Below are positions 19,279 through 63,242 of a DNA stretch of 64,000 nt, in pieces. The stretch comes from a phage. The stretch lies in sequence record OZ336095.1; one strand, given 5' to 3'. The notes below the pieces were generated by a model, which was not told where the DNA came from, searched no databases, and saw only the letters and a list, made by a program, of their open reading frames with translations. A program made the position numbers and the translations under genes. Numbering within the stretch: position 1 is the first letter of the stretch; each line of letters begins with the position of its first letter.

Positions 19279-20451
19279 ATGGCAGTAGGTGAAATTCAAA
19301 TTAGTGCCTTGCCTCAAGCAGCTTTACCAATTGACCTTAGTGATATCTTCCATCTTAAGCAGGGTATTGAGGATAAGAGGTGTACTCTTGAGCAATTACT
19401 TGCTCCACACGCAAGCCTAAGAAATAACCCTCATGGTGTTACTAAAACACAAATTGGTTTAGATAATGTTATTAATGCTCTTCAGTTAGTCGCTGCAAAT
19501 AACTTATCAGATATTGTTAATGTAGCTGAGGCAAGAGCAAATCTACAGATTATGTCTTCAGAAGAGGTTAATAACCTTGTCCAGCAACATATCAAGGACA
19601 AGAGTAACCCACACAATACAACTAAGGCACAGGTTGGTTTAAGTAATGTTCAGAACTGGACAACATCTAATCTGTATAACGAAGATGCAGATAAGTATGC
19701 TACAGCAAGAGCAGTAAATAACTTGTACAAGGCTGTTCAGGCTTCTTATCCAGTAGGTACTATCCATCTTTCTATGAACTCTGCAAACCCTTCTACATAC
19801 TTAATTTGTGGAGGTACTTGGGAGTTAGTTTCAAAAGGCAGGGCATTGGTTGGCTATGACTCTGATACAAGACCAGCAGGTTCTGTATTTGGCGCTTCAA
19901 CTGTCACTTTGTCAGTTAATAACATGCCTCAACACTCCCACTCTGTGTCTCTTAGCGGTGGTGGTCACACTCATAATGCAACTGTGTCAATCTCAGCTTT
20001 TGATTATGGGGCTAAGACTACAAACTCTTTTGACTATGGGACAAAAGCTACTAACACAACTGGTAACCATACACACAGTGTGTCAGGTAACACAAGCACC
20101 AATGGTACTCACAACCATGATGTGTATCCTAGAGAAAATGATGGTACTGGTAATGCTGTAGCTGACTCTAATGGTGGTGGTGCAAGAAGGACATCAAGGA
20201 CTTCTAGTGACGGTGCGCACTCACACAGCTTTAACGTCACATCTGGTGCATCAGGTGACCACAGCCACACGGTTGGTATTGGTGCTCACAGCCATACAGT
20301 TGGTATTGGTTCACACACGCACAGTGGCACTGTAACAGTTTCTTCTTCTGAACATACACATAGTGGTAATACAAATAGTGTTGGTGGAGGTCAGGCGGTT
20401 AATATTGAGCAGCCATCCTTCGTACTGTATGTATGGCAGAGAACAGCTTAA
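19279..20451 (+). CDS. tail fibre protein with His-x-His repeat C-terminal domain
   Basis: 390 aa; N-terminal repeated 'NPH..TK.Q.GL.NV' motifs; C-terminal 'HSHSVS', 'GNHTHSVSG', 'DHSHTVGIGAHSHTVGIGSHTHSG' repeats typical of fibre tips. Confidence 0.65.
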   Translation: MAVGEIQISALPQAALPIDLSDIFHLKQGIEDKRCTLEQLLAPHASLRNNPHGVTKTQIGLDNVINALQLVAANNLSDIVNVAEARANLQIMSSEEVNNLVQQHIKDKSNPHNTTKAQVGLSNVQNWTTSNLYNEDADKYATARAVNNLYKAVQASYPVGTIHLSMNSANPSTYLICGGTWELVSKGRALVGYDSDTRPAGSVFGASTVTLSVNNMPQHSHSVSLSGGGHTHNATVSISAFDYGAKTTNSFDYGTKATNTTGNHTHSVSGNTSTNGTHNHDVYPRENDGTGNAVADSNGGGARRTSRTSSDGAHSHSFNVTSGASGDHSHTVGIGAHSHTVGIGSHTHSGTVTVSSSEHTHSGNTNSVGGGQAVNIEQPSFVLYVWQRTA

Positions 20452-27140: not shown

Positions 27141-27210
27141 TTCCATACCATACCACACCAAACCACACCATACCGAACCACACCCTACCAAACCCGACCA
27201 AACCCGACCG
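27141..27210. repeat. C-rich decamer-phased tandem repeat tract (region A, left)
   Basis: seven consecutive 10-nt units ending CCA/CCG (ttccatacca taccacacca aaccacacca ...); + strand nearly G-free. Confidence 0.6.
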
Positions 27211-34532: not shown

Positions 34533-34955
34533 ATGCAGAAAATGTTTGTTCACCCAGACATAGCTGACTTTGTTAGAGCTTTGCAGAAGTTGGAAGAACT
34601 TGACATTGCTGCTCAACGGGAATATGCTCACCATCACAGGAGAATGGTTGATATACAACATGAAATAGAGTTGTCTGAAAACTATGAAGATGACTTAAAA
34701 TGCTCTGTATTTGAGCATATGAAAGATGTTGCTACAGCGAGACGTAAAGCTAAAGACACAGTTGCTTTACTAGATTCTCTTAAAAAGATGTTGCAAAGTG
34801 GTACAGACCTGTGTAATCTAGCGTCACTGATTAACGATGTTGAAACTTCTTGGGATAGGCACTATTATCCACGTTCTGAAAAGACACTTGACTTTTCTTC
34901 ATCTGAAAACTTAAAATGTTCTAGAAAGAAACTTAACCAACTGAGAGAGAAATAA
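34533..34955 (+). CDS. hypothetical protein
   Basis: 140-aa ORF, first gene of + strand block. Confidence 0.4.
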   Translation: MQKMFVHPDIADFVRALQKLEELDIAAQREYAHHHRRMVDIQHEIELSENYEDDLKCSVFEHMKDVATARRKAKDTVALLDSLKKMLQSGTDLCNLASLINDVETSWDRHYYPRSEKTLDFSSSENLKCSRKKLNQLREK

Positions 34956-36562: not shown

Positions 36563-36570
36563 AAGAGAGA

Positions 36571-41684: not shown

Positions 41685-41930
41685 TTGAGAGAGAATAAAA
41701 TGTTTAACAAAAGTAAAGCTGTGAGTCATGTAGCAAAGGTTGACAGCAAGATTGAAGAACTTGAGCGCATTCTTGCAAATGCCAGAGAGTCAATAATTAA
41801 AGAAGTTGAAGCTGTTGAATCTCAAATGCAGCACCTAATGCTTAAACGTCAAGAGTTACGTGAGCATCTGGAATATATTGAAACACGAGAGCTAAAAGTT
41901 AACAGATTTTTAAGGAGTCCGAATGTTTAA
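41685..41930 (+). CDS. hypothetical coiled-coil protein
   Basis: 81-aa ORF, heptad-like E/L/R pattern. Confidence 0.3.
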   Translation: MRENKMFNKSKAVSHVAKVDSKIEELERILANARESIIKEVEAVESQMQHLMLKRQELREHLEYIETRELKVNRFLRSPNV

Positions 41931-47459: not shown

Positions 47460-49604
47460 ATGAACAAAGTACAGATTATTAAAAAGAACGGCTCACTTGA
47501 AGAACCTGATATCAAAAAAGTTTTAGCAGCAGTCACAAAGTCAGCTAACAGAGTTGGTTATAAAGAGCTTCCACCAGATGTTACTCAAGCTCTTGAGTCA
47601 GCATTTATGAGGATTCTGGTAAAGTCCACTAAGCAGAATAATTTGCTAATTTCTGTAAATGATATTCACAGTATTGTTGAGGGTGCTTTGGCAGAAGTCA
47701 ATCACGAGATTTATGAGTCTTACTCAACATATAGAAATTACCGTAAAGAAGTTGCTCAAAATTGGGATGAGCTTTACCAGAAGACCAAAGATACACTCTT
47801 CTTAGGTGACCGAGAAAACGCTAATTTTGACAGCAGTTTAATTTCTACAAAAGGTTCAATTATTCGTGGTTATCTGACTAAAGAAATCTTTAAACAGTAC
47901 CACTTAACACCAGAGGAACTTGAAGCCATTGAAAAAGGGTTTATCTATATCCATGATTTAAGAGACCTAATTTTTGGTGGTATCAACTGTTGCCTGTTTG
48001 ACATTGGTAAAGTCCTGAAAGGTGGCTTTGAAATGTCTGGCATCGAATATTGTGAACCGAAGTCTGTACTGTCAGCCTTACAGGTTATTGGTGATGTAGT
48101 TCTTTCAGCAACTGCACAGCAATTTGGTGGTTTTACTTTAGCAGAGATTGATAAGGTACTTGTACCGTATGCTAAGAAGTCTCTACGCTATCATGCTGAG
48201 AAAGCATCATCTTATGGTATTCCTAAAGAGCATTACCACAATTATGTAATGGAGCAGTTACAAATTGAACTGACTCAAGGTTTTCAGTCACTTGAGATGA
48301 AACTAAATACCGTGCCTTGTAGCCGTGGTGATTTTGCATTCACAACTTTGACATTCGGGTTACTTGAATCAGATATGTCCAATGAAGATAACCGACTGCA
48401 ATATATGATTGCAAGTACTCTCCTAGATGTTCGTATGAATGGTCAAGGTAAGAGCAAGAAACCTGTTGTATTCCCTAAACTGGTTTATATTTATGACCAG
48501 AAGAGACATAATGAGAATATCTGCCAAGGCCACCTGTACAGTAAAGCTATAGAGTGTTGCTCTAAAGCGATGTATCCAGATTTCTTAAGTGTGTCTGGTC
48601 ATGGTGCTGTAGCAGAAGCTTTTGAGCGTTCTGGCAAGGTAATTTCGCCGATGGGTTGTAGAGCCTTCTTATCTCCATATCTTAATGAGGATGGGGAAGA
48701 GTTCTACGTTGGTCGTGCTAACATTGGTGCTGTATCTTTGAACTTACCGATGATTTATCAGTACGCCAAAGAGAATGGTTTAGATTTCTGGAAAGAGCTT
48801 GATAAGTACCTAGAGATGATTCGCAGCTTCCACAAGAAACGCTACGAAATGATTGCTAATATGCCAGCAAGTTCTAACCCTCTCGCATTCACACAGGGTG
48901 GTCTATACAAAGGGAATAAGAAACCTACTGATAAGGTTGGCTGGGATATCGTGAAGTCCTTCACAGCTTCTTTTGGGGTTACTGCGCTTGATGAATTATC
49001 TGTTCTTGCTGAAGGTAAACGACTTCATGAAGTTGGAAGTTGCAGTTTTGCATACGATGTTCTGGAATACATCAACATGAAAACTGAAGAGTTTAAAAAT
49101 GAAGATGGTTTCTTATATGCAGTCTATGGCACTCCAGCAGAATCACTTTGTGGAACTCAGCTAAAACAGTTCAGAGATATGTTTGGAGTTATCAAAGGTG
49201 TTTCTGATAAGGAATACTTTACAAACAGCTTCCATATGAATGTTGCAGCAGACATCACACCATTTGAGAAGCAGGACTTAGAAGAACCTTTCTTCCATAT
49301 CTGTAGAGGTGGCAGAATCCAGTATGTAAGGGTAGCTAATCCAGAAAACTTATCAGCACTTAAGAGTTGTATTACAAGAGGGATGTTGAAAGGTTTCTAT
49401 CAGGGACTTAACTTTGACTTAGCAATCTGTGAACATTGTGGTAACAGACCAAAGGCTGATGTTGAAGAGTGTGAGGTTTGCCATTCACATGATATCTCTG
49501 TGATTAACAGGGTGTGTGGGTATCTTGGATGGACTAAGATTAAAGGTGAATCCCGAATGAACGATGCAAAAATCGCTGAGATTCGTGATAGAGTCTCTAT
49601 GTAA
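47460..49604 (+). CDS. nrdD: anaerobic ribonucleoside-triphosphate reductase (class III)
   Basis: 714 aa; C-terminal Zn-ribbon 'CEHCGNRPKADVEECEVC' and glycyl-radical-like 'RVCGYLG'. Confidence 0.85.
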   Translation: MNKVQIIKKNGSLEEPDIKKVLAAVTKSANRVGYKELPPDVTQALESAFMRILVKSTKQNNLLISVNDIHSIVEGALAEVNHEIYESYSTYRNYRKEVAQNWDELYQKTKDTLFLGDRENANFDSSLISTKGSIIRGYLTKEIFKQYHLTPEELEAIEKGFIYIHDLRDLIFGGINCCLFDIGKVLKGGFEMSGIEYCEPKSVLSALQVIGDVVLSATAQQFGGFTLAEIDKVLVPYAKKSLRYHAEKASSYGIPKEHYHNYVMEQLQIELTQGFQSLEMKLNTVPCSRGDFAFTTLTFGLLESDMSNEDNRLQYMIASTLLDVRMNGQGKSKKPVVFPKLVYIYDQKRHNENICQGHLYSKAIECCSKAMYPDFLSVSGHGAVAEAFERSGKVISPMGCRAFLSPYLNEDGEEFYVGRANIGAVSLNLPMIYQYAKENGLDFWKELDKYLEMIRSFHKKRYEMIANMPASSNPLAFTQGGLYKGNKKPTDKVGWDIVKSFTASFGVTALDELSVLAEGKRLHEVGSCSFAYDVLEYINMKTEEFKNEDGFLYAVYGTPAESLCGTQLKQFRDMFGVIKGVSDKEYFTNSFHMNVAADITPFEKQDLEEPFFHICRGGRIQYVRVANPENLSALKSCITRGMLKGFYQGLNFDLAICEHCGNRPKADVEECEVCHSHDISVINRVCGYLGWTKIKGESRMNDAKIAEIRDRVSM

Positions 49605-49613
49605 AAACTTGAC

Positions 49614-49653
49614 AAGGTGATGTAGGTCTTGATAGGCTTACATCACCTTTTTT
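49614..49653 (+). terminator. intrinsic terminator after nrdD
   Basis: 11-bp stem AAGGTGATGTA / TACATCACCTT followed by TTTTTT. Confidence 0.6.
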
Positions 49654-50352: not shown

Positions 50353-50648
50353 GTAAAACAATTCGAAGAAAAGGTTTAAAGAACGTTCATGGACTCTACG
50401 AGTGGAGAAATGAGGTACGTAACAGAGAAAATGCTTCAGATGTCTACTTCCATTCTGATATGATGTCCAGAAAAGGTGGCTCTTACGACTTCACAAGCCA
50501 GCCTTGTAGAGAGATTAAGAAGGCCACTAAACGTCTTACAAGAACACAAATAAGGCAGCTTTCTAAGACATCCTTCTTAGATGAAGATTTTGATATTGAT
50601 AGCAAGTCTCCAAAGAAAGCCGCTAAGAACACTTATATGTATTGGTGA
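50349..50648 (+). CDS. hypothetical protein
   Basis: 99-aa ORF, ATGA-coupled. Confidence 0.35.
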   Translation: MSKTIRRKGLKNVHGLYEWRNEVRNRENASDVYFHSDMMSRKGGSYDFTSQPCREIKKATKRLTRTQIRQLSKTSFLDEDFDIDSKSPKKAAKNTYMYW

Positions 50649-50657
50649 GGTAACTAG

Positions 50658-51143
50658 ATGAATTACATGGAGATTCGACCATTTGACACAGCTAATGGTG
50701 AAGGGGTTCGTGTAAGCCTCTTCGTAGCTGGTTGTAAGCACCACTGTGAAGGTTGCTTTAATAAGGAATCTTGGAAGTTTAATGCTGGTAAAGAGTTCAC
50801 TTATGCAAACCTTTATGGCATCATTAAGTTAATGGATGATAATGCCATCAGTGGGCTGTCAATACTTGGTGGAGAACCTCTGGATGATAGAAACATTCAA
50901 GAGGTTACCAACATATGCAAACGTATTAAAACCGTTTACCCAGAAAAATCTATCTGGCTCTGGACAGGTTTTCAGTTACATGAAAAAATTCACCTTGATG
51001 TGATGAAATATGTTGACGTGGTGATTGATGGTAAGTATGATTCATCTAAACCAACAGTTAAACCATATCGTGGTTCTGATAACCAAAACCTCTGGAGAAA
51101 AGAGTATGGGTGGCAAGGTGATTGTCAGTGGAGAGCAGAGTGA
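50658..51143 (+). CDS. nrdG: anaerobic RNR activating enzyme (radical SAM)
   Basis: 'CKHHCEGC' CxxxCxxC cluster near N-terminus; 161 aa; downstream of nrdD. Confidence 0.75.
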   Translation: MNYMEIRPFDTANGEGVRVSLFVAGCKHHCEGCFNKESWKFNAGKEFTYANLYGIIKLMDDNAISGLSILGGEPLDDRNIQEVTNICKRIKTVYPEKSIWLWTGFQLHEKIHLDVMKYVDVVIDGKYDSSKPTVKPYRGSDNQNLWRKEYGWQGDCQWRAE

Positions 51144-51225
51144 TTATTCTGGCAAATGGACTAAGGTATAACTCCAATTGGTATCACTGAAGAAGAACTT
51201 CATAAGTTCTGTATTAAACTTTAAT

Positions 51226-51249
51226 GAGAGAGAGAGAGAGAGAGAGAGA
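51226..51249. repeat. (GA)12 dinucleotide microsatellite
   Basis: 24 nt of uninterrupted GAGAGA... ending 6 nt before ATG 51256. Confidence 0.9.
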
Positions 51250-51255
51250 CTAAAA

Positions 51256-51522
51256 ATGGGAATTTTAGGTAATATGAAAGCTGGATTCTTGAAGGCACTG
51301 GCAAAAGCAGCAGCAATTGTTTCTATGACTGGAAAGCAGGTCGGTGTAGATGCTTCAGCGGTTGCACAGGTTCTTACAAGCCAAATTGAACAGCAGCCTT
51401 ACATCTATGTAGGTCGTGGCAAAGGTGGTAAGAAACAAGCCCACCGTCCGTCTGGTGCAGCAGCTATTAAACGAGCAGCTAAGAAAGCTCGTAACCGTAA
51501 ACGTAATAAGAAGGCTAAATAA
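51256..51522 (+). CDS. small basic protein (Lys/Arg-rich C-terminus)
   Basis: ATG 51256 just after the GA tract (track ORF 51178 reads through the repeat as ERERERER); C-terminus 'KRAAKKARNRKRNKKAK'. Confidence 0.4.
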   Translation: MGILGNMKAGFLKALAKAAAIVSMTGKQVGVDASAVAQVLTSQIEQQPYIYVGRGKGGKKQAHRPSGAAAIKRAAKKARNRKRNKKAK

Positions 51523-51524
51523 TC

Positions 51525-51845
51525 ATGAGCAAAGTTTATAACACTCGTAAATTACAGATTTTCTTACTGTGCCAGTTTATGGCTAGAGAGCATAACTCCT
51601 ACTATTGTGGTACAGGATTCATTAGTGATAATGATGGCTCATATCTCCCATTCAAAGAGGCTGTAAAACTCTTCAATGAAGAGAAAAGCTCTGAGAAAGA
51701 TATTGAAAAGGTTAAATTAACCTATAGTAAGAAAGATAAGAAGATTATCTGCCTAGATAACTTTGTGAAAGTTACCAAAGAAACTAAAGAGTTAATGGAA
51801 GAAAGTGAAATTCCATTCACAAGAATCTTGAAAGTAGCTCAGTAA
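51525..51845 (+). CDS. hypothetical protein
   Basis: 106-aa ORF followed by terminator. Confidence 0.35.
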   Translation: MSKVYNTRKLQIFLLCQFMAREHNSYYCGTGFISDNDGSYLPFKEAVKLFNEEKSSEKDIEKVKLTYSKKDKKIICLDNFVKVTKETKELMEESEIPFTRILKVAQ

Positions 51846-51856
51846 GCAGATACTAT

Positions 51857-51887
51857 AAGGGAACTGTAAAGGTTCCCTTTTTATTTT
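51857..51887 (+). terminator. intrinsic terminator
   Basis: AAGGGAAC tgtaaag GTTCCCTT followed by TTTATTTTGG. Confidence 0.5.
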
Positions 51888-51896
51888 GGAGATAAT

Positions 51897-52412
51897 ATGT
51901 ATCTGTCAAATCTGAAACGTTCTGCTGCAATGTCAGTGTTAAGACTCAGTTTTGAGGAACGTCAAGAGTTCATTGACTCCCACCAATACGACCCTTCCAA
52001 CTCCAATCACATGATTCTCTGGAATCGTGAGAGTACTCGTGAAAGAGCATTATTTCGATATTACCCACACTATACCATAGACAACCTATATGAATGCTTT
52101 GTTGTGAAGAACACCATTACAGTACTCAATAAACTTTGCAGATACACAGGCAGTCAATCCTTCACATTAGGTCACCACAAACCTGTTACAAAAGGTGGTG
52201 AACATCACTGTGCAAACTGGTTTATCCAGACTAAACTTGATAACCAGAAGCAAGGGGATAGTCTTTTAAGTACCCCTAAGATGACCTACGAAGAGCAAGA
52301 GAAATATATCAAAAACAATATGCCAGATGTGCTTGACAACAACTATACAGATTTGGCAATATCTCTCCTGTTGAAGTTCGAGACAGTTTATAGGGCAACT
52401 TATAATGGCTAA
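51897..52412 (+). CDS. HNH-like endonuclease (putative)
   Basis: 'LGHHKPVTKGGEHHCANWFIQTKLDNQKQGD' resembles HNH core (His-His ... Asn ... Gln/His). Confidence 0.4.
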   Translation: MYLSNLKRSAAMSVLRLSFEERQEFIDSHQYDPSNSNHMILWNRESTRERALFRYYPHYTIDNLYECFVVKNTITVLNKLCRYTGSQSFTLGHHKPVTKGGEHHCANWFIQTKLDNQKQGDSLLSTPKMTYEEQEKYIKNNMPDVLDNNYTDLAISLLLKFETVYRATYNG

Positions 52413-52683
52413 AGAGAAGTGGGAGATTTTACCATTAGTCAGTGAAGGTGGTAATGGTTGTGAGATGTACATGATACGTGGTCATGTTCCAGAACCAATT
52501 GCACTTGAGATGGTAAACAACTTTACAGATGGCTCTTACAAAGACTTAGGAGAGCCAACTATAAAGCAGCAATGGGTAAAGCCTGTACCAGACAGCACAG
52601 GTAACTGTAGTGTACTTTATCACGTTGTAGACCCTGCAAAATGCAAATCTGCAATGGCAGTAACAAACGTAACTTTTGATTGA
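52405..52683 (+). CDS. hypothetical protein
   Basis: 92-aa ORF overlapping flanking genes. Confidence 0.3.
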   Translation: MAKEKWEILPLVSEGGNGCEMYMIRGHVPEPIALEMVNNFTDGSYKDLGEPTIKQQWVKPVPDSTGNCSVLYHVVDPAKCKSAMAVTNVTFD

Positions 52684-52694
52684 GAGAGAAAACT

Positions 52695-53606: not shown

Positions 53607-53621
53607 GAGAGAGATTAAAAG

Positions 53622-58738: not shown

Positions 58739-58782
58739 AGCATCACAAAATGATTTATTAACTAACAAGAGAGAGTAATAAG

Positions 58783-60541: not shown

Positions 60542-61214
60542 TGAAGTACTGTGTCATGCTTATGACTTACATCCTCATGAGTTAGGTCTTGATTCCTGTG
60601 TATGGACTCCAGAACAGTGTAGGGATTTTGAAGACACCGCAAGAGAGGTTGTATGTTCACTCGAAGAGTTCCACACATCAGAGCCAATTGTTAATGTTGT
60701 AGATAAAGAGACTGGACAAGCTATAGGTGTAAGTCGTGATAGTTTAGTCATAGTCAATAAAGACCTTGTAGAAAAAGGGAATCTCATCTTAGCAGATATT
60801 GATGGTGTTCTTACAAATTTTAATCACGAAGATTGTTCAACGGAATTGACTGACGGTTCATTCTCGCAGTATACCAATCTTCTTGATTCTGTAAGAGCAA
60901 AGCCGACGTATGTTTTCAATATCATTGATGCAATTGCTAATCATGCTGCTGTTGGACTCTTGACAGCGAGAGGTGAATCTCAGAGAATACCTACTGAGAT
61001 GTTTTTAAGGCATAACACAGAGCATGATTACATGCTTTTTATGCGTGGTTTTGGGACTAACTCTATAAGTGCAGAAAGTTTGAAAGTAAGGATGATTCAG
61101 TCTTGCATTCTTCCTTACTTTAATATAGTATGCTTTATAGAAGACACAGAGAAGAATGTTCAGAAGGTAAACAGAATACTTCCACACATCAAAACCATGT
61201 TAGTTAAACATTGA
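60519..61214 (+). CDS. HAD-superfamily phosphatase-like protein
   Basis: HAD motif I 'ILADIDGVL', motif II 'GLLTARG', acidic motif 'FIEDTEKN'. Confidence 0.45.
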   Translation: MKKLRKSDEVLCHAYDLHPHELGLDSCVWTPEQCRDFEDTAREVVCSLEEFHTSEPIVNVVDKETGQAIGVSRDSLVIVNKDLVEKGNLILADIDGVLTNFNHEDCSTELTDGSFSQYTNLLDSVRAKPTYVFNIIDAIANHAAVGLLTARGESQRIPTEMFLRHNTEHDYMLFMRGFGTNSISAESLKVRMIQSCILPYFNIVCFIEDTEKNVQKVNRILPHIKTMLVKH

Positions 61215-61224
61215 GAGAAAACTT

Positions 61225-63049: not shown

Positions 63050-63242
63050 TTTCTGCAAAGACTGTGCTATCGAAATGTTTGGACGTGATACAGGTGATTT
63101 AAAAGGTCTTATCACTGAAGATGACTTTAAAGCTGGCTATGCAATGCCAGTAATCTGTGAAGGTTGTGGGTGCATCTGGGTAGACCACGAAGGGCAACGT
63201 GTAAAACCTTCAGAAGATAAAGAATCTTGGGAGAGATGTTAA
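63042..63242 (+). CDS. small zinc-binding protein
   Basis: 66 aa with 'CKDC' and 'CEGCGC' cysteine clusters. Confidence 0.3.
   Translation: MADFCKDCAIEMFGRDTGDLKGLITEDDFKAGYAMPVICEGCGCIWVDHEGQRVKPSEDKESWERC

Follow-up and report, generated by a model that had tools for sequence, protein, structure and literature searches.

What are twelve uninterrupted GA units doing directly ahead of a small gene in a virulent phage, and does their number matter to that gene? The initial annotation of the 64-kb stretch of DNA analysed here (the window) described a pure 24-nt (GA)12 tract ending 6 nt ahead of the ATG at 51256, and called it unexpected in a phage genome and prone to slippage. It further proposed that the tract forms the ribosome-binding region and that its length might tune or phase-vary expression of the 88-aa protein encoded downstream.

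A perfect (GA)12 tract in a Felix O1-like phage

Direct reading gives the local order TTTAAT, (GA)12, CTAAAA, ATG, and Tandem Repeats Finder calls the tract with period 2, 12.0 copies and 100% matches, which confirms the tract as described. The elements of the site are:

51226-51249, + strand: (GA)12 microsatellite, read from the sequence and called by Tandem Repeats Finder
51242-51249, + strand: 3'-most GAGAGAGA register, 6 nt from the ATG and thus at a productive distance, according to RNAduplex and the conserved spacing
51250-51255, + strand: spacer CTAAAA between tract and start codon, from the alignment of relatives

'Unexpected' proved an apt word: from base composition about 1e-9 occurrences of (GA)12/(TC)12 are expected per window (2.5e-9 under a first-order Markov model), and Tandem Repeats Finder detects no other dinucleotide array in the 64 kb. 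Mononucleotide shuffles yield 0.1 dinucleotide runs of at least six units, and the window has this one locus. The tract is real and not a product of chance; the count of 12 units for the window comes from one assembly. Other tandem repeats, a CCAAA/CCACA-type array with a period of 5/10/15 and 2.1-2.3 copies of a 27-nt unit, are found elsewhere, at 27143-27209 and 20254-20325.

The phage origin holds as well, the region being 92-97% identical to about 250 Felixounavirus records. The window belongs to this group of Felix O1-like myoviruses, which infect E. coli, Salmonella and Shigella, and none of the nearest GenBank records exceeds about 96% identity to it across 24 kb. The neighbourhood of the tract comprises the following features:

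47460-49604: nrdD, uninterrupted in the window, from gene order
49614-49649: terminator-like hairpin preceding the site
50658-51143, + strand: nrdG (anaerobic ribonucleotide reductase activase), upstream gene of the same putative transcription unit
51106-51224, + strand: remnant of the phrog_5082 ORF, from alignment with relatives
51222-51226, + strand: TAATG, in which the TAA stop (51222-51224) of the disrupted phrog_5082 ORF overlaps the ATG at 51224
51256-51522, + strand: 88-aa gene, phrog_4425
51525-51845, + strand: 106-aa DUF7390 gene, starting 2 nt past the stop of the 88-aa gene
about 51857-51889, + strand: intrinsic-terminator-like hairpin and T-run, putative end of the unit

Two small ORFs sit between the first hairpin and nrdG. 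With terminator-like sites at 49614-49649 and about 51857-51889, the tract most likely lies inside a polycistronic mRNA. The phrog_5082 ORF is intact (91 aa) in L003 (757-1032) and in phiWec172-type relatives. In the window and its clade it was broken by a 157-nt deletion relative to phiWec172-type genomes; what remains is an N-terminal piece of 21 codons (51106-51171) and, out of frame with it, a C-terminal piece (51165-51224) whose TAA stop stands immediately 5' of the tract.

Several structural variants were observed in this part of the genome. The nrdD gene is in two parts in some relatives (L058 5476-8362, L104 16322-18782, L105 21064-23524); an HNH_3 endonuclease gene lies between the halves in L058, likely an intron or homing element, and P219 and SPJ41 have an nrdD gap without an annotated endonuclease. 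Other HNH or GIY-YIG insertions vary among relatives near prs and the NAPRTase gene. An 11-bp 'attP' misc_recomb label is present in KhF2/KhF3: by aligned locus offset, the KhF2 label (L001 1524-1534, equivalent to about 51873-51883 of the window) maps to the 3' half of the terminator hairpin past the DUF7390 gene. Such a label is unexpected in a virulent phage; it has nothing to do with the tract and probably reflects an annotation error.

The tract is an expanded Shine-Dalgarno-like motif

A (GA)3-4 core is found 5-7 nt ahead of the ATG in all orthologues of the 88-aa gene, including those with only 53-63% protein identity; in these distant orthologues the upstream ORF reads through the core. 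The spacer is CTAAAA in most relatives, CTAAA in L020/L031 and CTAAAAA in L024. Furthermore, the arrangement of (GA)3-4, 5-8 nt and ATG recurs in the window, at no fewer than nine genes including the 88-aa gene. Candidate GA-type ribosome-binding sites, identified by the motif and its spacing to an ATG, are:

34943-34950: GA-type site
36565-36570: GA-type site
41687-41694: GA-type site
52682-52689: GA-type site of prs (ribose-phosphate pyrophosphokinase)
53607-53614: GA-type site of the NAPRTase (nicotinamide phosphoribosyltransferase) gene
about 58768-58775: GA-type site of rIIB
61213-61218: GA-type site
63231-63236: GA-type site

In a 20-kb locus of a relative, the motif precedes 6 of the 27 called genes, most others having GGAG or GAGG. 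RNAduplex predicts pairing of the motif with the 3' end of 16S rRNA at -2.9 kcal/mol for (GA)3, -5.0 for (GA)4 and -5.3 for (GA)12, against -6.1 to -6.4 for GGAG/GAGG (GGAG, -6.4) and -12.8 for the full consensus. The GA motif thus resembles the canonical GGAG/GAGG Shine-Dalgarno (SD) sequences of enterobacterial phages in being purine-rich, located 5-8 nt upstream and complementary to 16S rRNA with a similar energy. It differs from GGAG in the predicted geometry of pairing: in (GA)4 two GAG triplets, separated by a bulged A, bind the anti-SD instead of one contiguous stretch. A second difference follows from its being a tandem repeat, which makes expansion by slippage possible, while GGAG cannot expand in this way.

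Complementarity to 16S rRNA, location within 5-9 nt of the start codon, conservation and recurrence are what one expects of an SD-type ribosome-binding site (RBS). The placing of the ribosome-binding region of the 88-aa gene in the GA tract is therefore well supported: conservation in all orthologues and the recurrence of the motif at other genes argue for this role of the (GA)3-4 core. It follows that the microsatellite has expanded from a Shine-Dalgarno motif of the GAGAGAGA type that the phage also has at other genes. A literature search on GA-repeat ribosome-binding sites, simple sequence repeats (SSRs) or this polymorphism in Felixounavirus returned nothing specific.

Repeat number varies between relatives with near-identical flanks

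The same site carries 3, 4, 5, 6, 7, 8, 10 or 11 GA units in relatives, and the 12 units of the window are the longest tract found; scans permitting up to 16-18 units detected none longer. In close relatives the flanks, TTTAAT on one side and CTAAAA-ATG on the other, are unchanged. We observed n = 4 in KhF2, SeKF_63 and phiWec172, n = 4, 5 and 8 in IMG/VR contigs, n = 11 and 7 in the Salmonella phages P219 and SPJ41, n = 6 in JLBYU32, and n = 3 or 4 in more distant Ounavirinae. Among metagenomes, Logan assemblies and bacterial-isolate assemblies, thirteen contigs share an identical 88-aa protein, encoded behind tracts of 4 (five contigs), 5 (three), 6 (two), 7 (two) and 10 units (one). A pattern scan of metagenomes added three loci, all with n = 4; the scan of genome contigs returned one chance match, in an unrelated Chitinophagaceae MAG.

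Among the best 60 of 138 matching GenBank records, eight have more than four units, as judged from alignment spans, and about 90% of the cultured isolates in this set retain n = 4. Four units are, as this distribution indicates, the majority and ancestral state. The 3'-most register in the window, 51242-51249, is the equivalent of the whole tract in such genomes.

Sizeable length differences separate haplotypes whose flanks hardly differ. Over 1,140 nt of flank, P219 and SPJ41 have no mismatch and carry 11 and 7 units, L052 and L055 have one mismatch and carry 10 and 6, and the window and L054 have two mismatches and carry 12 and 7. Overall, up to six units separate haplotypes with 0-5 mismatches in this flank, and a neighbour-joining tree of the flank distributes the expanded alleles over about six separate groups. 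The tract therefore changes much faster than about 1 kb of its surroundings gains substitutions. Rapid change relative to the flank is not evidence of rates like those of phase variation: equal n is also observed in near-identical pairs (L071/L072, L067/L068 and two LF110P2 records), and, two duplicate pairs excepted, any two of the sampled genomes are separated by about 3% or more across 20 kb. The expanded alleles comprise all frame classes and nearly all lengths, and no expanded state is favoured.

The tract thus shares two properties with SSR contingency loci: it is uninterrupted (100% pure) and long enough for slippage, and its length varies among close relatives (n = 3-12) within constant flanks. 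This substantiates the earlier description of the tract as slippage-prone. A comparison of repeat length across isolates had been proposed as a check, with invariance counting against the idea; since length varies from 3 to 12 units, invariance is not what the isolates display.

What tract length can alter

The third property of such loci, a change in unit number that switches expression by position, is absent here, as the tract lies outside the ORF and the 6-nt spacer is fixed. Whatever the value of n, the tract ends at the same 3' edge and is followed by the same spacer, one base of the A-run varying in a few relatives, and the productive SD register therefore does not move with n. The predicted energy of SD:anti-SD pairing is likewise flat (-5.0 kcal/mol at n = 4, -5.3 at n = 12). 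Partition-function folding of leaders with 0 to 16 units gives a cost of opening positions -18 to +12 that falls from 7.2 kcal/mol at n = 4 to 6.0 at n = 12. In standard initiation models this difference of about 1.2 kcal/mol would correspond to an effect of the order of two-fold and not to a switch. Phase variation in the on/off sense, one of the two outcomes envisaged by the initial annotation, is thus not supported, given the fixed spacer and register, the constant SD energy and the small change in opening cost. Graded tuning by n may still occur. The thermodynamic model takes no account of mRNA decay, of S1 and standby effects or of rivalry between SD registers, and each of these could raise the weight of length. 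Additional registers might serve as standby sites or compete as decoys, and the sign of their effect is not predictable from sequence.

We considered other cis elements around the tract. No Rfam match is obtained in 50600-52000 at E<=1, and predicted folds contain no stable pairing partner for the tract. A role as promoter spacer was rejected: no sigma-70-like hexamers flank the tract, and promoter-like matches in the region are no commoner than in shuffles. We also rejected an enhancer similar to the 'epsilon' element of T7 gene 10. The motif AACTTTAA in TTAAACTTTAAT (51210-51225), just upstream of the tract, matches the epsilon translational enhancer, UUAACUUUA; this likeness is real at the site, yet the motif is inconsistent at other GA-type sites and is not enriched in the window.

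Expansion is concentrated at this site

Control GA-type tracts in the same 30-39 loci have at most six units throughout: site 41687 always has four, site 52682 has 2-6 (more than four in two loci), site 53607 has 3-6 (more than four in four loci) and site 58769 has 2-5. Five or more units are found in 13 of 30 loci at the tract and in 6 of 100 at control sites (Fisher p=5e-6, kinship ignored). P219 and SPJ41, which are 98.2% identical over 23.6 kb and differ by four units at the tract, agree in the length of all other (GA)4 tracts.

Expanded alleles are more frequent where the upstream ORF is deleted (10 of 20 haplotypes) than where it is intact (3 of 19), a comparison confounded by shared ancestry. 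Stop-to-start distance may be less constrained once the neighbouring translated ORF is gone, and the excess of expansions in ORF-deleted genomes possibly reflects such relaxation after translational coupling was lost. The same pattern could equally result from selection on expression, just as positive or diversifying selection on how strongly the 88-aa gene is expressed would be an equally good explanation of the strong locus specificity.

Tolerated drift or selected variation

We propose that the variation probably represents tolerated slippage drift of an SD-like (GA)4 motif, with at most modest tuning of translation. Felix O1-like phages would use GAGAGA(GA), followed by 5-8 nt and an ATG, as the RBS of a subset of their genes, and replication slippage would have lengthened this phage's own (GA)4 element. 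At the 88-aa gene the 8-nt motif may have passed the threshold for slippage, so that its length now drifts between 3 and 12 units from lineage to lineage. Added units would be insertions 5' of a fixed 3' SD register; with SD-to-AUG geometry and SD:anti-SD energy unchanged, length changes would be tolerated as near-neutral. A longer unstructured purine leader and additional non-productive or standby registers may provide modest grading. Constraint may have been relaxed at this locus by loss of the upstream ORF, which would remove the need for a short stop-to-start distance.

Alternatively, the tract may be a contingency locus, in which frequent, reversible slippage at the RBS generates subpopulations that differ in protein dose and are selected as bet-hedging, for example if the 88-aa protein were a host-takeover or anti-defence effector whose best dose depended on the host. 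Hypervariability relative to the flanks, recurrent expansion, and specificity for this locus over GA-type tracts of equal purity all fit this model; if diversity of dose were selected, expansion at this site alone, out of several equally pure ones, would be accounted for. The downstream protein is, furthermore, under purifying selection across Ounavirinae. Precedents also exist, in the homopolymer contingency loci recently reported from phages T2 and T4 (PMC12633550) and in the graded control by a 5'-UTR repeat known from H. influenzae hmw1A (PMC12721329). We nevertheless regard a contingency function as unlikely: SD strength and SD-AUG spacing are independent of n, predicted accessibility changes by only about 1.2 kcal/mol, n = 4 prevails in about 90% of cultured isolates among the best 60 of 138 matches, near-identical genome pairs have identical n, and the expanded alleles cover every frame class and almost every length without favouring any one. 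In its full form, with slippage in an SD repeat continuously diversifying the dose of a conserved small basic protein that resembles a histone tail, as a translation-initiation contingency locus of a virulent phage, the idea is a decidedly long shot.

Could the length be artefactual, a true (GA)4-5 tract having been inflated by polymerase stutter or mis-assembly? Twelve is the single longest value, and for comparison GenBank offers nothing above 96% identity over 24 kb. We consider this very improbable, given that independent assemblies from different laboratories and platforms have 5, 6, 7, 8, 10 and 11 units at the same site with clean flanks, that a 24-nt repeat is well inside read length, and that the window's tract has undamaged flanks that align in register.

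Little credence can be given to an effect at the DNA level, in which an H-DNA triplex would make replication or transcription pause, or would promote recombination, independently of the RBS. (GA)12.(TC)12 is a canonical H-DNA-forming sequence; the tract is a perfect 24-bp homopurine-homopyrimidine (GA).(TC) mirror repeat and, by sequence criterion, exceeds the minimum of about 16 bp for this class. The neighbourhood is also rich in indels, including the 157-nt deletion and the HNH/GIY-YIG endonuclease insertions of relatives. However, none of the structural changes is tied to the tract itself, and H-DNA could not form in the commonest and ancestral state, which is only 8 bp long; expansion would bring about such an effect only incidentally.

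Repeat number also sets which upstream start codon is in frame with the 88-aa gene. The ATG at 51224 is in frame when n = 2 mod 3 (5, 8, 11), which is not the case in the window, and P219 (n = 11) is annotated from it. The TTG at 51178 is in frame when n = 0 mod 3, as in the window, where it opens a 114-aa ORF through the tract. Gene callers consequently already give this gene inconsistent N-termini as n changes the upstream frame, with products of 88, 93, 98, 110 and 114 aa. That an in-frame upstream start adds (Arg-Glu)n or (Glu-Arg)n and thereby creates phase-variable isoforms would agree with the open frame from TTG 51178, with the extended starts annotated in P219 and JLBYU32 (n = 6) and with the 'MRETKM...' forms (P0002) common among gene calls, but its probability is close to negligible, since both upstream starts are without an SD-like element, n = 4 genomes have an in-frame TGA at the AAT/GA junction just 5' of the conserved ATG, every orthologue retains the conserved ATGGGAAT start and, 5-7 nt ahead of it, the GA core, and expanded alleles fall in all three frame classes.

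Relation to known repeat-controlled systems

Classical bacterial SSR loci, such as those of Haemophilus, Neisseria and Campylobacter, lie within an ORF, where they cause frameshifts, or between the -35 and -10 elements. The GA tract resembles them as a pure repeat beside expression signals whose unit number is polymorphic in near-identical sequences, with slippage as the obvious mechanism. It differs in its carrier, a virulent phage, and in that units are added upstream of a fixed SD register, so that no on/off switch is predicted.

Slippage-prone poly-G tracts are present inside ORFs of Campylobacter phages, where they cause reversible frameshifts. In T2 and T4, contingency loci are homopolymers of at least 6 nt in ORFs that likewise undergo reversible frameshift; they come from a survey that scanned for homopolymers only (Gomez, Barrick and Waters 2025 preprint, PMC12633550). 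All these are slippage-prone repeats generating heterogeneity in virulent phage genomes, as is the GA tract, which is by contrast a dinucleotide repeat in an intergenic RBS.

For a tuning function, the closest mechanistic analogue appears to be hmw1A of H. influenzae, whose 5'-UTR contains a 7-nt repeat, in at least 11 copies, that forms a long hairpin processed by RNase III and has a graded effect (PMC12721329). The GA repeat would likewise be transcribed in the leader of the gene it may regulate, and the hmw1A effect is graded rather than on/off. The GA tract differs in forming the SD element itself and in finding no stable pairing partner in predicted folds.

Under drift alone, the tract would be a natural case of a microsatellite serving as a Shine-Dalgarno element. 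If its length tunes expression, the idea of phage contingency would extend from frameshifts at homopolymers within genes to repeat-encoded control of translation initiation, and the 88-aa basic protein would be marked as a dose-sensitive factor. Were the contingency model true, the tract would be the first contingency locus known from a phage that consists of a dinucleotide repeat and lies within an RBS. Felix O1-like phages are widely used in biocontrol and typing of Salmonella and E. coli, and the tract is a useful hypervariable marker for typing these phages themselves.

The 88-aa protein

The protein matches phrog_4425, a PHROG without functional annotation, and has no Pfam, PDB or PADLOC match. 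Its homologues (217 records) are restricted to Ounavirinae. They combine a divergent N-terminal half, which is predicted to form amphipathic helices in the 88-aa protein, with an invariant basic C-terminal block, YVGRGKGGKKQAHRxSGAAAIKRAAKKARNRKR, and the protein ends in KRAAKKARNRKRNKKAK. Synonymous differences are present across this conserved block, which argues for a real gene under purifying selection at the protein level. AlphaFold (AF2) predicts three helices at low confidence (pLDDT 64), of which the basic C-terminal helix is best defined. Nucleic-acid binding by the basic C-terminus is a plausible guess; the block VGRGKGGKKQAHR...KRAAKKARNRKR (51406-51519, residues 51-88) may resemble the N-terminal tail of histone H4.

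In a few database versions of the protein (P0009, P0029), the frame shifts within the Lys/Arg-rich region to an overlapping +1 frame (51416-51541 in the window), and the shifted versions end in ...LVQQLLNEQLRKLVTVNV(I/T)RRLNNHEQSL. These forms are either sequencing errors at A-runs or real frameshift alleles.
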